Shown: in pieces, positions 55,801 through 64,000 of the stretch
Numbering within the stretch: position 1 is the stretch's first letter
Layout of the letters: every line of letters starts with the position of its first letter
Assembly (NCBI RefSeq): GCF_018977255.1
Contig: NW_024704742.1
Span: 52,578,001 to 52,642,000, forward strand
Direction: 5' to 3'
Source: Callorhinchus milii
Lineage: Eukaryota
Length of the DNA stretch: 64,000 nucleotides
Notes under the pieces: generated by a model
What the model was told of the DNA's origin: nothing
The model's input: only the letters and a program-made list of their open reading frames with translations
Databases searched by the model: none
Program-made: the position numbers and the translations under genes

Positions 55801-58800
55801 GCAATTAAAAAAACAGGAAACAAATGCATCAACAGAAAACATTTAGAAATCACGCTTCATGCGGGAAACATTGGAAGTGTTAAACAATTGCATGGTTTGA
55901 CACTGAGTCGGGGAGAAAGGGGAGTTGACTATAGTTGGGATTAAAATAGTTGAGCCACAGCGTAAAACTCTTTCATCAGATGCACTTAATGTTTATTTGC
56001 TAAATTGCTTCACAACGGGACTAAAAGCTAAATTATCTTTTCCACTTAAATCAGATAAGAATACAAAAGCTGTCGCAACTATCCCTTAGCATTCCATATC
56101 AATTCAGATTGCTGCAGTACACATTGAACTGTAGAAAGATTAATGTCTGTTACCAGTTCACTTTCACATCCCTCTCAGTGCTCCCAACAGGATTTTTACT
56201 GTAAAGTATAGTGACTATATTTTCCAGGTAAATGATTGTTTACATACAAACAACAGACATCAAAATTCTCTACCGACAACCAGCAATGTGCAATCTGATT
56301 AGAATAGCTATCAGTAGGAGTGGTACATAATTTTGCGTAAACTTCTTCATTAAAACAGATGAAAGGGCTAAAATTCCTTTAGATATCTTACAAATACCAT
56401 ACACAATAACCCACCTCTAACATTAGTGGAGTAAACTCTTCATTGCTAAGAAATGTAGGCTTCCAATCCTGCCGTATTTCACTTGCATCTGACTGTGCTG
56501 TGACTTCTAGAAGAACAGGTATACTTTAATTCAAATATCTTCATTTATACCAATACTGCTATTCTTACCACACAATCATTAAAGACAACTAGAATATTTA
56601 TCTATGAAATATATAAGACATCACAACAGAAAATAAATGGCATCAAGAGAATTTACATTCACAATAATGTCACTGCAATCAATCAACAAACCAATATTAT
56701 TATAGGTTACATTCAAATTAATATATTGGGCTCTAATTTTAAAATATTTTAAAAAAGAAAATCTAAAGAAAAATGGTTGCTAGAAATCTGAAATAAATGC
56801 AGAAAATGTTTAATGGTCCTAAACAAATATGAATCTAACTTCTTCTTTCAAATAATTGACCATAAAAATATCTTTAAAAATTTGTGTAGTCAACCAGATT
56901 TCTGAAACTCATGCAGAAACTCAGCACCATGCTTAAGAGTATCCAAACCAGAGAGAGCTCCACATATGGTCATTGAATCAGTGACTGAGAGGGCATCAAT
57001 TTAAGACAATTAGCAAATAAGCAAATGAGGAGGATGAGAGATTTCTTTTAAAATCATGCAGAGCAGTTAGGATGTGGAATGCCCTGCTGGGAGTAATAGT
57101 TGAAGCAGAAATCATATTAGCTTATAAAAGAGCTAATCAATATTTAAAAATATGGGGAAAGGGCAGGTGAACTCAAAGCCTCAGAGTTTCCCATCAGCCA
57201 TCTGATGGACATTATTTGATGAACATCTGCCTTCATCTGTTGTTGTTGTATAATAATAATCCTTGCATTTAATATAGCGCCTTATCTTGGTTGAGCCATC
57301 TCAAATCGTTTCACAGAATATAATGTAAAGTTAATTGACGGTATATTTTGTGGGCGAAACGCGGCAGCCAATAGTGCACAGCAGTGTCTCACAAACAGTC
57401 GTGGATTCAATGACCAAATTATTATTTTTTTTGAAGAGACTCCTACCCCCCAGAAGCAATCTGCCAATCGCCTAACAACTGGGTTCCCACTTACTGCTAG
57501 GTAAACAGAGGTGTGTGGAGTAAGGAAAATTGCCTAACATTTCGTCCTGCCTGGGAGTCGAACCCGGGTGCTCTGGCTTGCGATGCAAGTGCTCTAACCA
57601 ATACGATACAGGACTCCTGCCATTAATATAAAACAGAAAAATATTTGTTACAAAACAATAGATTAACTACCTTTGTGCTTCTGCAAAAAAACAATTGTTT
57701 TCTGTAATACGGTTGACTTGTCCATCTTTCGACTGTTACCTGGAAGCATGGAGCCAAGCTCTTTGATGAGCACATTAAACTGGTCTCGCCGTTTCTTCTC
57801 AGATTTGTTCCTGGACACCCTAGGGTTAGAAGAATATTTGGAACAGTAAAATATTCATAATTATACAATTCAACTGGATTACAAAAAAATCTAATTCTCC
57901 CAAACCCCAAATTAATAATATTCATTGCATTTGCTGAGCAGCTTACTAAGTAAAACATTTCAAAATGCTCACAAATGATTACTTTAATGTGTAGTGACTA
58001 CTTGTAGCCAAATGTGGCAGCCATTTTCACTAGCAAGATCACACAGTCATGAGAGAAGTAGGGCAATCAATAAGGAGGATTTATGGCCAGCATACCAGAG
58101 AAAAAGTTAGCCATCCCTGCGCTCAAGTTTTGAGGTCTTGAACCACAACCCTCTCACCCAAAATTAAATTGTGCAATTTAAGCAAAGCACGTTATTAAGT
58201 TTCTCTAACAGATTACAATATCCACAGCAATGTTCAGTTCAGATCCAACCACTGTATCTCACCTGTAATATTTACCTAATATAATTAGAATCTGCAACCA
58301 ACAACATTTAAAACTTTACTAGCCCCCGCATGTTTCTAGTAATCAAAGCGTGATTAAAGCACAGCTATTTGGCTCCAACAACTGTGCTGGTGCCCCCAAT
58401 TAAGCCAATAACTTTTTCCCCATAACGTTTCCAGTGTGTATAAAAATATGCATGCATTTCCACTTAAGTATATCTACATAACTATAACCTCCTCCCTATC
58501 ACCCGACTAAGTTTCCATTTTACGTACTCCTCATCAGTAATATTCTTGCTATAATAGAACACCCAAAACTGCACAACTGTAGCCTTACAACTGGTACATT
58601 AGAAATTGAGATGATCTCCTTGCTTTTATTCAATACCCCTAAACATTTGGTATAGTGCCTTTCACGACAGGAGGACGTCTCAAAGCACTTCACAGGGTAT
58701 ACTGTAAAGTTTAGTGACAGTGTGTTCTTGGGGGCTAACATGCACCCAATCTCACCAACACCAAATATAGGGAGATTATGGACTACCTGGTGTGCAAAAT

Positions 58801-61800
58801 CAAAAAGATCTGCTGTACTGCCTTCACAATTGCCCCCCCAACCCCATCAGCACTACATCATCACCCCTCACCCTTCTCACCATTCATATGAAACCTGCCA
58901 GCTGCCCTTGATCCCACCCACAAACAACTTATGTTCATCCAGCAACTGCTTGCTGTCCTACCCCCTACATTAGCAAACATCATCAATGTCTCACTATTCT
59001 CTGCCATTGCATACACTTCTTTCAAAACCACCATTATTAACCCCTCCCCTCAAACAAAAAACACACCTATCCCTTACGTTCACCAGGTATTGCCTCATCT
59101 CCAATATACCCTTCCTTTCTAAGGTGCCGGAACCCACCTTTATCTCTGAGATTTGCTCCTTCCTCTCACCAACCCCTGAATGAGTCCTTCTAAACTGGCT
59201 TCCTGCCCACCTGCACTATGAAGGCAGCCCTGAGTTAAAGGAACAAAAAACACTCTCTTCCTGCAGCCACAGCTCCCTGTGCACCCTTATTCTCCTCAAA
59301 CTCTCTGCCATCTTTGAGACCACTGACCACACCATCCTCCTCCATGGTTTCTCCTCCCTGTTACATATCTGAGCTTTGCGCTTTCCTGGTTTCACTCCCC
59401 ACTATCCAGTCATTGCTAGGTCTCTTCGAACAGCGTTTCCTCCAACCACTGCATGGTTACGTAACATTCCTCGGAGCATCTGAGGTTCTCACCTTTTCCT
59501 CATGTTCTATCCTTAGTTCTCTCCTTTTGCTCATCTACACGCTTCCCTCAATGACATCAATTGCAGGAAACAGGGTCCACTTCCATATGTATGCAGGCAA
59601 CCAAACTCTTACCTTTCTGCCTCCGCCCTTGAACACTGCTGTTCTACCAATCACCTTTCTGACATCAAATCCTGGTCGAGCCACAGCTTTTCCAATTTGT
59701 CTTTCTCCCCTTCCATCAGAATCTCCTCCCTGTATCAACTTTTTCGGGTGCTCATTCCAACTCACCGAGCCTGTGCAGATCCTTAAGGTTTTTTCAACTC
59801 TCAACCCTCTTTGAAATTTTTTATCCAGTCACTAACCAAGACCACTCTTCTCCATCTCCACATTGCCTGCCTCAACCACTCAGCCTAAACCCTCATCTAC
59901 ACATTCGTCAGCCTTCAGAATCAACATTTTCCTGCCCTGCCAGCATCTCTAGCTCCACAACTCCAGAGTCCACATCTACTCCCCCACTAGGCTCCATGAG
60001 CCCATCTCTTCCATCCTCCTCCAGCTCCATGAGTGTTTTAGCCATTCTCACAAAGCTCACCTTTTAGCCTTGTCCTTATCATCTTCATCCACCAATCCAT
60101 CAAAAATGCTACTGTCATCCCTGTTAACACAACAGAAAGTGCAAATGCAGTGGAGGGCTCTTAAAACATATCCATCAGTTTCTCAATGTTCATCTCAAGT
60201 TGAATTTGGCTCCAACATATTTTACTGTGTTTAAATACGAAACTGAAGTTATCTCAAATAGCCCAGTAACCATTTTCTAACATCATATGTCACCAATACA
60301 TTTTGATTCAGTTAAAAATGGTAGCAAGAGGCCTGACCTGCCAATATTTTCTGGTGAGTTGCAGATATACCATGAAAGAGCAACCATAACTGAATCCTTC
60401 TGAGTACATATACCAATCTTGGGAGTCGTAATAACGAAAAATTCACGTTGTGAAGTCCTCATCTTCTAACACCACCTACTAATTCCATTCTCTTAATAAT
60501 AATAAATCTTGCATTTGATATGCCACCTTATCACATCGCAAAATCTTGAAGCAGAGTTTTCTGTAACCTTTAGTGACTGTTTGTAAGTGAACACAGCAGC
60601 CAATTTGCACACAGCATTATCCCACAAACAGCCATGAAGTAGAACTGTTAGAGGTATAATACTGACTTCCATTTTTAAGGTCACCACAGATATCACTTCC
60701 TGCGCACTGCACACATGTGCTACGTGTAAGTGGCACCTTTAATATCACTCTAATGGAATCATACAAACTGGAAGTCAGCCATTTCTGCAGTTGAAAAGAT
60801 ATCTAACAGTCTAAATATGCAAAAAATGTCAAATAAATATTGATATTGGTCTTCTTAAAAACTTCTACAATGAAACATTTCTAAAGCAGATATACAATTG
60901 ATGACCACAAAACAAATTCCATGAAGCAAAGCATACATTTCTCCCAAAAGAAGATACAATATCATGGAATTAATTCAGTTATAAAAATACAATACTTATG
61001 TTCATAAGAGCAAGCAGACTAGAATTATCATCAATCTTTGTATTTGTGACCCAGGATAGTCCAACCTTTTGGCTGCCTCATCCTCTCTCTCACACACAAT
61101 CTCCCTCTCTCAATTACTGTCTCTCACTCCCCCTCTCTCCCGCATACTCTCTCTATCCCCTCTCAAACTCTCTCTTAATCACCCTCTCAACCTCCCCCTC
61201 TCTCCGTTTCTTCCTCTCTCCCTTTCCATCACATTCACTCCCTCCCCTCTCTCAATCTATCTCTGTTCTCTCCCCCTTTCAATCACTGTCCGTCTGCCCC
61301 TCTCTCAGTCTCTCTCTCTCTTTCCCCTTTTCTTACCTCTCACATGTGCTCTCTCCCCTGGGTTCCCCTCTCTCTCCCCCACCAGGTCTCCCCCCCCCGA
61401 ACCACCCCCCCCACTTACCACCACCTCTCCCTACAATCCACCCCCTCTCCCCCCCGCTCCGCCCCTGTACCCACCCTCTCTCCCCCCTGCCCTCCCCCAC
61501 TGCGCACCCCCCCCCTCTCTCCCCCCTACGCACCCCCCCTTTCTCCCCCCACGACGCACCCCCCTCTCTCTCCCCCCCTACGCGCCCCCCCCTCTCTGCC
61601 CCCCCCCTACGCGCCCCCCTCTCTCCCCACCCGCGCATGCCTTTCTGACAAACTGCGGCAACGGCCGGCATTATTTTCATTCTCCGCTCCAGAAGGAATT
61701 AATTTAATACAGTAGTTACCAAAGTGGCAAAAAGGTAGATTAGGAGATTTTTAAAAAAACACAGCATGTGAAATGCCATGTTGGAAGACTTCAATTTGAA

Positions 61801-61990
61801 GTAGTATGGGAAAAGATAGATAAAGGGGCTTGAATTCATTGCTCTTTTAAAGGGCGAGCATAGGGACAATGAGTTGAATATGCCTTCAATATATTGCTAT
61901 TGGAAAAGTAACTTATTTTACCACATTGTAAAAGGAAGTTTTTTTTAAAAAAACTTACCTGTCTGCACAGCTAGAGCTCATCTTATTCAT
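28654..61990 (-). CDS. CLOCK: Circadian locomoter output cycles protein kaput (bHLH-PAS), complete CDS in 20 coding exons, 2496 nt, about 831 aa
   Basis: b[30 protein letters not shown] ([28 protein letters not shown]), exon-19 coiled coil [27 protein letters not shown], and a Q-rich C-terminus. Exon phases chain without a frameshift. It is convergent with TMEM165 as in other vertebrates. This synteny and the N-terminal [20 protein letters not shown] separate it from NPAS2. Confidence 0.97.
29515..29940 (+). mobile_element. CR1 LINE 3' fragment
   Basis: [26 protein letters not shown]; ttcttatgttctt tail. Confidence 0.8.
30168..30411 (-). CDS. CLOCK: CLOCK coding exon 19 (244 nt)
   Basis: [44 protein letters not shown]...QQFLQ. 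Confidence 0.93.
31117..31319 (-). CDS. CLOCK: CLOCK coding exon 18 (203 nt)
   Basis: [36 protein letters not shown]...[12 protein letters not shown]. Confidence 0.92.
32029..32247 (-). CDS. CLOCK: CLOCK coding exon 17 (219 nt)
   Basis: [27 protein letters not shown]...IATSLQ. Confidence 0.88.
32778..32945 (-). mobile_element. CR1 3' end
   Basis: agaacataagaaataggagcaggagtaggccat; near-identical to 48540-48700. Confidence 0.8.
33363..33708 (+). mobile_element. tRNA-derived SINE, full length
   Basis: gtggagttctg..head, body, and gctatatcaaatgcaaggattatt tail. Confidence 0.8.
34111..34269 (-). CDS. CLOCK: CLOCK coding exon 16 (equivalent of mouse exon 19 coiled coil)
   Basis: [53 protein letters not shown]; an alternative in-frame acceptor would start the exon at 34257. 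Confidence 0.93.
34749..34835 (-). CDS. CLOCK: CLOCK coding exon 15 (87 nt)
   Basis: [29 protein letters not shown]; phase 0/0, AG..GT; weakly conserved. Confidence 0.75.
36119..36222 (-). CDS. CLOCK: CLOCK coding exon 14 (104 nt)
   Basis: [35 protein letters not shown]. Confidence 0.9.
36578..36716 (-). CDS. CLOCK: CLOCK coding exon 13 (139 nt)
   Basis: [46 protein letters not shown]. Confidence 0.9.
38390..38465 (-). CDS. CLOCK: CLOCK coding exon 12 (76 nt)
   Basis: [25 protein letters not shown]. Confidence 0.93.
39669..39816 (-). CDS. CLOCK: CLOCK coding exon 11, PAC (148 nt)
   Basis: [50 protein letters not shown]. Confidence 0.95.
42872..42978 (-). CDS. CLOCK: CLOCK coding exon 10 (107 nt)
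   Basis: [35 protein letters not shown]. Confidence 0.95.
43922..44004 (-). CDS. CLOCK: CLOCK coding exon 9, PAS-B start (83 nt)
   Basis: [28 protein letters not shown]. Confidence 0.95.
44200..45160 (+). mobile_element. CR1 fragment with a nested minus-strand CR1 3' end (about 44347-44571)
   Basis: Colinear with 15570-16010 except for the inserted reverse CR1 tail. Confidence 0.75.
45232..45350 (-). CDS. CLOCK: CLOCK coding exon 8 (119 nt)
   Basis: [40 protein letters not shown]. Confidence 0.93.
46453..46566 (-). CDS. CLOCK: CLOCK coding exon 7 (114 nt)
   Basis: [37 protein letters not shown]. Confidence 0.93.
47186..47700. repeat. Unclassified dispersed repeat, copy 2
   Basis: Colinear with 8208-8700. 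Confidence 0.85.
48540..49520 (-). mobile_element. CR1 LINE, RT C-terminus and 3' UTR (5'-truncated)
   Basis: [60 protein letters not shown]. Confidence 0.9.
54539..54659 (-). CDS. CLOCK: CLOCK coding exon 6 (121 nt)
   Basis: [40 protein letters not shown]. Confidence 0.93.
54902..54991 (-). CDS. CLOCK: CLOCK coding exon 5, PAS-A (90 nt)
   Basis: [30 protein letters not shown]. Confidence 0.95.
55322..55646 (-). mobile_element. Young tRNA-derived SINE
   Basis: Head GGAGTCCTGTAGCTCAGTGGTTAGAGCACTCGCTTTGCAAGTGAG..GTTCAATTCC (A box, B box); (tta)n tail. Confidence 0.9.
56415..56506 (-). CDS. CLOCK: CLOCK coding exon 4 (92 nt)
   Basis: [31 protein letters not shown]. Confidence 0.95.
57251..57620 (-). 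mobile_element. tRNA-derived SINE, full length
   Basis: Same family; B box GGTTCGACTCCC. Confidence 0.88.
57671..57819 (-). CDS. CLOCK: CLOCK coding exon 3, bHLH (149 nt)
   Basis: [49 protein letters not shown]. Confidence 0.95.
58780..60030 (+). mobile_element. Degenerate L2 reverse-transcriptase fragment
   Basis: [27 protein letters not shown] and FHMYA remnants across frameshifts. Confidence 0.7.
60061..60120 (-). CDS. CLOCK: CLOCK coding exon 2 (60 nt)
   Basis: [22 protein letters not shown]|gtgagc. Confidence 0.95.
61080..61635. repeat. Polypyrimidine / C-run low-complexity tract
   Basis: CT-rich sequence grading into repeats of ccccccctctctccccccctacgc. Confidence 0.9.
61959..61990 (-). 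CDS. CLOCK: CLOCK coding exon 1 ([11 protein letters not shown]; alternative start at second ATG 61981)
   Basis: ATGAATAAGATGAGCTCTAGCTGTGCAGACAG|gtaagt. Confidence 0.85.
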
Positions 61991-62038
61991 TTATAGTAGC
62001 CAGCAAAAGCAGAAGTATTTCAATCTTATGGTAGACAT
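61991..62038 (-). promoter_or_regulatory. Upstream ORF (MSTIRLKYFCFCWLL*) in the CLOCK 5' UTR, with its stop abutting the main ATG
   Basis: ATG TCT ACC ATA AGA TTG AAA TAC TTC TGC TTT TGC TGG CTA CTA TAA ATG. The nearest acceptors (exon starting 62046 or 62060) lie upstream, so it is exonic. Confidence 0.7.
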
Positions 62039-63646
62039 TTGGCCGACTAAATCAGGAAAACTGAAAAAGTAATGTGGAAGCATGTTAAACTGGTAAAATG
62101 TTTCTGTAAATTAGTAATAAAATTCAATACAGCGAGCATGTGTATTACATTGGAAACTATGTCTTTATATTGCAAATGCATTCGTTATCTATAATTTCTC
62201 CCATTATAAAAATAATACCAGCACAATTTCCCATGCAAGCGTCTTATGTTGAGAAATAGTCAGGTGTAAAGCTTTAAATAAAATAGGATTAGTAGGTTAA
62301 GTGGCAGTGAAACATTATTCTCCATGATCAAACTACTGTAATATCAATAACTAATAGTGGGATCAAAGATGACATGTGCCAGTGGCTTCAAGAGAAACTC
62401 TTTTTTTTAAAAAAACTGATAAATGATTTGAACACTTACTCCTAAATAGAAACCACGTACTGTGTAACTAGCATAGGTAAATTTCTAAATTTTCAGAGCT
62501 CCAGTAATCTGTCAGCCAATTACCTTACTTGTTCCACGAGAGATCTACAGTATCATGTGACAGGACTATTCCCATTTTGATCCTGTATTACATAAATGTT
62601 CCCAAAAACATAAACTGGTAGAATCAAGTTATGAGATGGAAAATTGGATGAATTCCCAGATTTAAATGTACTCTTGAATATAGATCCTAATTTAAAAAAC
62701 ATGCAACATATTTTCATACAACATAGTTACAATTGTGAGAAATTAATGCAGGCTGCAATTTCAGGAAATGCACTGGGCAAGTCTCCAGAAAATGATAGAA
62801 AAGTACATTAAAGTCAAGAACAGCCTAGGGCAAACCAAAGATTTTTAATATAATTTTTAGTATTGAAAATTATTAATTTAAGTAATTATTTCTTCCCGCA
62901 ATATATGCCCCTTCTTATGGTTCCTTCCCTCCTCATCCTGGAGTATAGTTCCACAGATGCTGGTTGCCCGCCCGAGTGGTCATCTTTTCAAATGCTGTCA
63001 CACACTTGCCAATAGATGGTGTTAATAGAGAAACCATGAGTGCACTGGTTTTCCCTGACTCATTTTCTCTTCCCAACCCTGAGAAGGCTATGGCCAATTT
63101 ACCTATTTAGCACCGGATTGTACAAGCAAACTCCAACTCCCTCTCTCCCCTCGTTCAATACAGGCAGTCCGTCCTATAGAGTAAGAGGACCCAGGTTCAA
63201 TTTCCAGACAGAACAAATCCTTAGGCAAGTTTCCTTACTCCACACACCTCTCCATAATGTTTACCTAGCAGTAAGTAGGAACCCGGGTGCTAATGATGTA
63301 CATAAAACTCTGCTGCAATTTAACCATAACTTGCATTTGTTATTTAACTCAATTTTAAGTACTGTTGACGAAAAATAATTCTAAAGATTGAATAAAACTG
63401 CACTTTCAAACTGAAAATATCTCCACAAATGATTTACAAATACTCTGGACATGTTGTCACTCTTTATTAGAACCTCATAATATTTACTATGTGAAACAAT
63501 GTACCATGACTGATAACATTTCTCAATAGAGCAACGCTGTAGCATGTGGTTAGCAAAAAGTAGGTCAAGAAGCCTTAGAAAAATTGTCAAATTAGTAAAA
63601 TTTTGGACAACATGATCAGGAAATCATAGGAATGAAAATACAATAT

Positions 63647-64000
63647 TCAGCCCTTTTCATATCGCGAGGACGACTCAAAGCACTTCAGTGTGCTGGATGT
63701 GCTGGATGTGCAGGCAAGCTGGGCTAAGCCAAGGAGGATGGAGAATAAAGATGGCCAAAAGCAGGGTCGAAGAGGCATGTTTTGAGATGTGCCTCGATGG
63801 AGGGAGCAAATCAGAAGGACTCTGAGATGGAGTTCCATATAGCAGCGGCAACATGGCTGAAAGCTCGTCTCCTGATGATAGTGTGGCTAGGGCAGGGAAT
63901 ATGAAACAGTAATCGTTGAGCAAAGGGAGCAGCAGGGACAGTGTGGTTGGAGGAGGTCACAACGTTAGAGTAGGCCGAGACCGTGGAGGGATTTGAATGG
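63647..64000 (-). mobile_element. L2 3' fragment running off the window end
   Basis: Reverse L2 3' region (gggtcgaaga.., gatggagttcca, ggctgaaagc). Confidence 0.6.

Follow-up and report, generated by a model that had tools for sequence, protein, structure and literature searches.

The first coding exon of the core clock gene CLOCK in the chimaera Callorhinchus milii carries a short upstream open reading frame (uORF) that ends directly against the annotated start of the protein. Is this layout an accident of one genome, a coupled stop-start signal, or a relative of the uORF known from mammalian Clock? The window that we analyzed is the whole 64,000-nt stretch of genomic DNA containing this exon. 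On its minus strand, the uORF (61991 to 62038) opens with the ATG at 62038 and closes with the TAA at 61993-61991; it comprises 15 sense codons plus the stop, ends on the sense codon CTA, and encodes the peptide MSTIRLKYFCFCWLL. Downstream of the stop, the minus strand reads ATG AAT AAG ATG AGC, and a GT donor follows position 61959. The letters thus bear out the original prediction of a 15-codon uORF with its TAA directly before the ATG-AAT-AAG-ATG of CLOCK, together with the bases that it gave at position -3, namely, C for the uORF ATG (uATG, 62038), T for the abutting ATG (61988 to 61990, minus strand), and A for the M-S-S ATG (61979 to 61981, minus strand). The +4 bases are T, A, and A, respectively, and the 102-nt exon contains only these three ATGs. 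The uATG and the abutting ATG both have a weak start context. The latter is in frame and would give a protein beginning with MNKMSS, a start found in C. milii models only (P0003 and P0183). The M-S-S ATG, located 9 nt past the uORF stop, is the start common to jawed vertebrates and likely the true CLOCK start.

A tblastn search with P0003 (XP_042197948.1) placed residues 1 to 831 on 20 exons that run from 61990 to 28657, mismatches being confined to the edges of the alignments, so that the coding exons span 28654 to 61990 on the minus strand, with the stop after 28657. The first coding exon (61959 to 62060, minus strand) runs for 102 nt from its upstream acceptor and contains the uORF and both CLOCK ATGs. 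It is followed by a 60-nt in-frame cassette exon (60061 to 60120, minus strand) and by the bHLH exon (57671 to 57819, minus strand), in which 50/50 residues are identical to P0003 and whose best match is C. milii CLOCK. The uORF therefore lies within the CLOCK gene, in the same exon as the M-S-S start, and the coding exons match C. milii CLOCK. The acceptor AG of the first coding exon (62062-62061) is preceded by 14 pyrimidines in 17 positions. A second possible acceptor AG (62047 to 62048, minus strand) would move the exon start to 62046; whichever of the two is used, the exon includes the uATG. Transcript support was drawn from contigs of 4 of the 13 listed sequencing runs over positions 57500 to 64000, three of these runs being guessed to be RNA and one, X8, being DNA-like. 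In X1 and X2, the cassette exon is included through joints 61959/60120 and 60061/57819, whose ends are canonical. In X4, a run guessed to be RNA, contig 17 spans 61958 to 62061 with 0 differences and then passes directly into the bHLH exon, skipping the cassette. The uATG lies 22 nt inside this contig, the one contig from an RNA-like run seen to span it. Its predicted presence in mature mRNA is accordingly seen in a spliced contig, the RNA status of the run being a guess. Because the X4 contig stops on the G of the upstream AG (62061), an exon start at 62060 is favored, on the strength of one contig, over the alternative start at 62046, also raised by the original prediction. Among the 15 joints listed out of 353, neither CLOCK joint was seen for the DNA-like run X8, and its contig over 61658 to 63242 shows no listed difference within 61959 to 62060. 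With the X4 and X8 contigs both unchanged, the letters of the uATG and the TAA are not an assembly error, and that candidate explanation was rejected. The 5' untranslated region upstream of 62060 may contain further uORFs. Predicted RNA folding of the exon was weaker than that of shuffled sequences (z +1.11), with no unusual structure.

A stop codon directly ahead of an ATG is a common occurrence. On both strands of the window, a stop triplet immediately precedes 184 of 2443 ATGs (7.5%), which makes the TAA-ATG junction unremarkable on its own, and 76 ATGs open a 15-codon frame. The peptide itself is more telling. We compared the N-termini of 310 fetched proteins, among which three amniote gene models fuse uORF-frame residues to the next exon. 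Two of them, from Myotis brandtii (P0059) and Galemys pyrenaicus (P0075), carry the 15-residue uORF-frame peptide MSTTRRKRNMLCCLP, identical to the window uORF at 7/15 residues. The third, from the duck Aix galericulata (P0072), carries seven uORF-frame residues, of which 6/7 are identical. Among 2441 ATG frames counted over the two strands of the window, the uORF alone reaches at least six identities beyond Met to residues 1 to 15 of P0059, and it alone reaches at least five beyond Met to P0072. By this measure, the resemblance to the mammalian uORF is out of the ordinary. M1, S2, T3, R5, and K7 are common to the chimaera, bat, desman, and duck peptides. When metagenome contigs were scanned with a gapped DNA pattern of the exon, 33 matches came up; not one of them had a CLOCK-like frame or an in-register uORF stop, and they are attributed to chance.

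The same protein set bears on whether the frame could be an N-terminal extension of CLOCK, the TAA being erroneous or read through. The chimaera uORF does share the CLOCK frame, and three amniote models fuse uORF-frame residues to the protein. However, the TAA is present in both the X4 and X8 contigs, the amniote uORF lies out of frame, and 0/310 proteins have the M-S-S segment after uORF residues, the three fusions passing directly from the uORF into the next exon. The contigs and the protein set largely refute this reading, which we consider hardly credible.

The kinship with the mammalian uORF that was raised in the original prediction can be followed at the nucleotide level. Mouse DNA was taken from published mutagenesis primers (PMC6547434) and aligned with the window by eye, no gaps being used. 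The mutated stop of mouse Clock uORF-2 falls exactly on the window TAA, and mouse uORF-2 has 15 codons as well, provided that the authors' start-codon substitution kept its length. By eye, 25 of the 42 unmutated uORF positions are identical, with identity densest in the first 20 nt, third codon positions included. There are no indels within the uORF, and the sole length difference lies just after the stop. In this one pair, also compared by eye, the codons show one synonymous and eight non-synonymous differences and residues 8 to 15 are mostly changed, so that start, length, and stop look conserved and the peptide does not. The uORF-2 of mouse and human shares with the chimaera frame the same gene and exon, an AUG with C at -3, an M-S-T beginning, 15 codons, and a TAA in register a few nucleotides before an M-S-S AUG with A at -3. 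With the same length, a stop in register, and 7/15 residues in common with P0059, the claimed kinship holds, and sequence comparison makes the feature almost certainly orthologous to mouse Clock uORF-2.

The two layouts nonetheless differ in several respects. The spacer from the uORF stop to the M-S-S ATG is 9 nt in the chimaera and 11 nt in mouse and other amniotes, which puts the chimaera uORF in frame with CLOCK and mouse uORF-2 out of frame. The last sense codon is CTA in the chimaera versus CCG in mouse. Mouse uORF-2 runs over the annotated AUG in a different frame and stops ahead of another AUG located nine codons downstream (PMC6547434), whereas the long-isoform AUG of amniotes is absent in the chimaera, where the position reads TTG and is out of frame, and the chimaera uORF overlaps no CLOCK start. 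Such an overlap belongs to the amniote layout, and orthology does not require it. Conversely, the extra weak ATG adjoining the chimaera uORF stop is absent in mouse. It had also been proposed that only KMSS aligns with the mammalian N-terminus. This is correct in the CLOCK frame, but in a shifted frame T-I-N of the window corresponds to T-[VI]-[SR] of the long amniote N-termini, so that the nucleotides of the exon can be aligned, the lengths differing by 2 nt past the stop.

The direct TAA-ATG abutment, which headed the original prediction as an apparently conserved feature, did not survive this comparison. The abutting ATG is not a conserved CLOCK start. In mouse, as the primers show, the 11 nt that separate the uORF stop from the M-S-S ATG include no ATG, and no MNK extension occurs in the gene models of 9/9 elasmobranch species or of the other lineages examined. 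The abutment is probably incidental. A functional role would have terminating ribosomes restart at 61990, with CLOCK beginning as MNKMSS. The zero-nucleotide spacing is real, RefSeq does begin the protein at 61990 (P0003), and viral reinitiation at closely spaced stop and start codons is known (PMC10275272). The TURBS-dependent systems of caliciviruses and influenza B resemble the chimaera exon in having directly adjacent stop and start codons, but they follow a long ORF and need an rRNA-pairing element (PMC10275272); the chimaera exon has no such element, and its adjacency is not conserved. The core TURBS motif is of the UGGGA type and lies upstream of the stop. The 102-nt exon extends 67 nt upstream of the stop and contains neither TGGGA nor GGGA. 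Moreover, the ATG at 61990 has T at -3, the exon has no special fold, and 7.5% of window ATGs follow a stop in any case. With no TURBS-like motif or special fold in the exon and no conservation of the MNK start, a functional stop-start was rejected, and we consider restart at 61990 quite improbable.

A conserved-Met pattern matched 219/310 proteins, the other 91 being fragments, other starts, fused models, missed variants, or unrelated cluster members. Of the matched proteins, 79 start at the conserved Met, whereas 140 have extended N-termini, of which 138 are of the amniote type and 2, both from C. milii, are MNK. In gene models, the start falls at the M-S-S equivalent in 9/9 elasmobranch species, gar, teleosts, coelacanth, and frogs. 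The nine-residue extension occurs in birds, crocodilians, turtles, squamates, and tuatara, as well as in mammals, marsupials and platypus among them. One partial model, from pika, lacks a Met at the long-start position. Annotators take the first in-frame ATG as the start, as the argument assumes. By parsimony over this distribution, M-S-S is ancestral, the long start is an amniote addition, and the abutting ATG is particular to the chimaera lineage, in line with the earlier proposal of M-S-S as the ancestral start. The amniote proteins may also carry a trace of the uORF stop. A stop in the uORF frame can be encoded across residues 5/6 in 14/14 distinct nine-residue extensions (17/17 in a wider set), against 0 to 2 of 14 at the other seven junctions and 10.75% of random residue pairs. 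Judged indirectly, from protein sequences that are related to one another, this fits a uORF stop kept across amniotes. The presence of the uORF at the same place and with the same length in the chimaera suggests that the shorter CLOCK start and this translational brake probably both go back to the earliest jawed vertebrates. The proposed origin at the base of jawed vertebrates is largely right as an evolutionary inference, with the qualification that the dating rests on the chimaera and amniotes, between which losses are possible.

How such a uORF would act is best known from mouse. In reporters, mutation of the downstream, M-S-S-equivalent AUG lowers output by about 95%, mutation of the annotated AUG has little effect, and mutation of uORF-2 raises output by about 50% and removes DENR dependence (PMC6547434). 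Clock is also among the poorest-translated clock mRNAs in mouse liver (PMC4665006). For the chimaera, the explanation that we favor as a whole, and hold to be fairly probable by analogy, is a weak-context, sequence-independent uORF that would lower CLOCK output through leaky scanning and reinitiation at 61981. Scanning ribosomes would probably initiate in part at the weak uATG and in part leak past it, and those that leak would probably also tend to skip the ATG at 61990, likewise weak, and begin translation at 61981. After translating the uORF, a ribosome would either leave the mRNA, lowering CLOCK output, or go on scanning until it reinitiates at 61981. The uORF peptide is probably not the effector. 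On this account, the longer amniote start would have arisen later within the uORF tail, in another frame, and the abutting ATG at 61990 would be a lineage-specific accident.

Two other accounts of the conserved exon were weighed against this one. The exon may be homologous with its letters kept for another reason, such as splicing or RNA-binding sites or slow holocephalan evolution, the ribosomes mostly leaking past the uORF. This would suit the weak uATG context and the concentration of identity in the first 20 nt, where third codon positions are included (by eye), and an exon with no unusual RNA structure (z +1.1) leaves a linear motif possible. Yet no indel has disturbed the start, length, or stop even as the middle codons diverge, with length changing only after the stop, and uORF-2 is heavily translated in mouse and human from the same weak start context as in the chimaera (PMC6547434). 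We therefore regard a passive uORF as unlikely. Alternatively, an MST-x-R-x-K product could stall the ribosome or act in trans, as the M1, S2, T3, R5, and K7 common to chimaera, bat, desman, and duck might suggest. The CPuORF criterion is amino-acid conservation with Ka/Ks below 0.5. Against mouse, one synonymous difference stands beside eight non-synonymous ones, the residues from 8 to 15 are mostly changed (by eye), and the residues in common are also alike at the nucleotide level. This one pair argues against a conserved peptide, a reading that we consider improbable.

The weakest step of the favored explanation, a weak-context uORF with leaky scanning and reinitiation at 61981, is its extension to the reinitiation factors DENR/MCTS1. 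The link of DENR to Clock translation named in the original prediction holds for mouse reporters (PMC6547434). For endogenous mouse Clock, the effect is borderline and below the transcriptome-wide threshold in mouse cells (adjusted P 0.76) (PMC6547434), and CLOCK is not a hit in HeLa DENR knockouts (log2FC TE -0.11 and -0.10) (PMC7494916). The uORFs of ATF4 and a-Raf that depend on DENR/MCTS1 (Bohlen et al. 2020, PMC7494916) are likewise short, upstream of the main start, and kept across animals, but they need the penultimate codons GCG, CTG, or ATG, which are those described as DENR-dependent, whereas the chimaera uORF ends in CTA. Neither CTA nor the CCG of mouse is among the codons named there (PMC7494916), and mouse uORF-2 is DENR-dependent regardless. 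Penultimate-codon effects are also weak in vitro (PMC11790910). By analogy with mouse, DENR/MCTS1 dependence of the chimaera uORF is thus possible rather than probable. A still broader reading would combine these elements. In it, uORF-2 would be a fixed-geometry control of CLOCK dosage in all jawed vertebrates, a group whose depth exceeds 400 million years; the amniote nine-residue N-terminus would overprint the uORF tail, its T-[VI]-[SR] core reflecting a hidden stop and not protein function; and short-spacer reinitiation would need DENR/MCTS1 in all lineages. Taken jointly, we find this tentative and on balance doubtful.

Conservation of uORF-2 has been reported across mammals only (PMC6547434, Castelo-Szekely et al. 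2019). Our literature search found no report of it outside mammals; most subscription papers fell outside its scope, and the CPuORF catalogue of PMC7530721, in which deeply conserved vertebrate uORFs are listed in large numbers, may include it. A search of PMC11685710 and PMC4890304 gave no clock-gene rows. PMC10032668 lists a different, primate-young CLOCK uORF of 20 residues, which is not uORF-2, and none of the five CLOCK uORF rows found in file 7 of PMC7494916 corresponds to it. Another core clock gene, Per2, also carries a conserved repressive uORF, although this one is a start-stop only and its conservation was shown in 22 mammals (PMC10556633). The chimaera uORF is thus a known element at a new evolutionary depth, with a simpler layout and no new mechanism. 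Single uORFs are generally hard to match across distant vertebrates (PMC4890304), which makes a clean one-to-one case on a core clock gene useful. A copy in the chimaera that agrees in start, length, and stop and lacks the long start provides independent evolutionary support for both claims made for mouse Clock. With one uORF and no overlapping start, it also offers a simpler natural version in which start context, length, spacer, and peptide could be told apart as targets of selection.

The exon carrying the 15-codon uORF is preceded by two tandem acceptors lying 14 nt apart (window 62062-62047, minus strand), both with strong pyrimidine tracts (14/17 and 13/17). The uATG at 62038 is exonic with either of them, and the choice of acceptor alters the leader immediately 5′ of it. 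The intron 3′ of this exon contains a G- and GA-rich low-complexity tract (61640-61100, minus strand).

In the amniote layout, according to the published mutagenesis primers for mouse Clock uORF-2 (PMC6547434), a second stop in the uORF frame overlaps the ATG of the M-S-S start as A-TGA, at the equivalent of window position 61981. In contrast, the window uORF lies in the CLOCK frame and lacks this amniote-type backup stop. In a partial pika model (P0234), the long start, i.e., the nine-residue-longer amniote N-terminus, has no methionine, M-S-S is intact, and T-I-S is stop-compatible. In the bat and desman models (P0059 and P0075), splicing at a GT overlapping the uORF stop creates an in-frame fusion between the uORF, 15 residues long, and CLOCK; this may be an artefact of gene prediction or else a genuine but minor isoform. 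This GT corresponds to window 61996-61991, where AT replaces it, and the window thus has no such donor.

Further into CLOCK, the exon at 56507-56412 (minus strand) encodes F-T-P-L-M-L-E, as does the C. milii model P0003, whereas in shark records, P0188 and P0200 among them, the P is replaced by Q. Downstream of the gene, tandem-repeat tracts on the minus strand (about 7350-6750 and 10600-9950) yield long repetitive open frames.

The 60-nt CLOCK exon at 60120-60061 (minus strand) stops where the bHLH basic region begins. In contig 17 from run X4, presumed to be RNA, 61959 is joined straight to 57819, leaving this exon out while keeping the frame. Since the same exon is absent from the models of the horn shark (P0010) and three frogs (P0252, P0254, and P0262), its skipping may be an old alternative splice.
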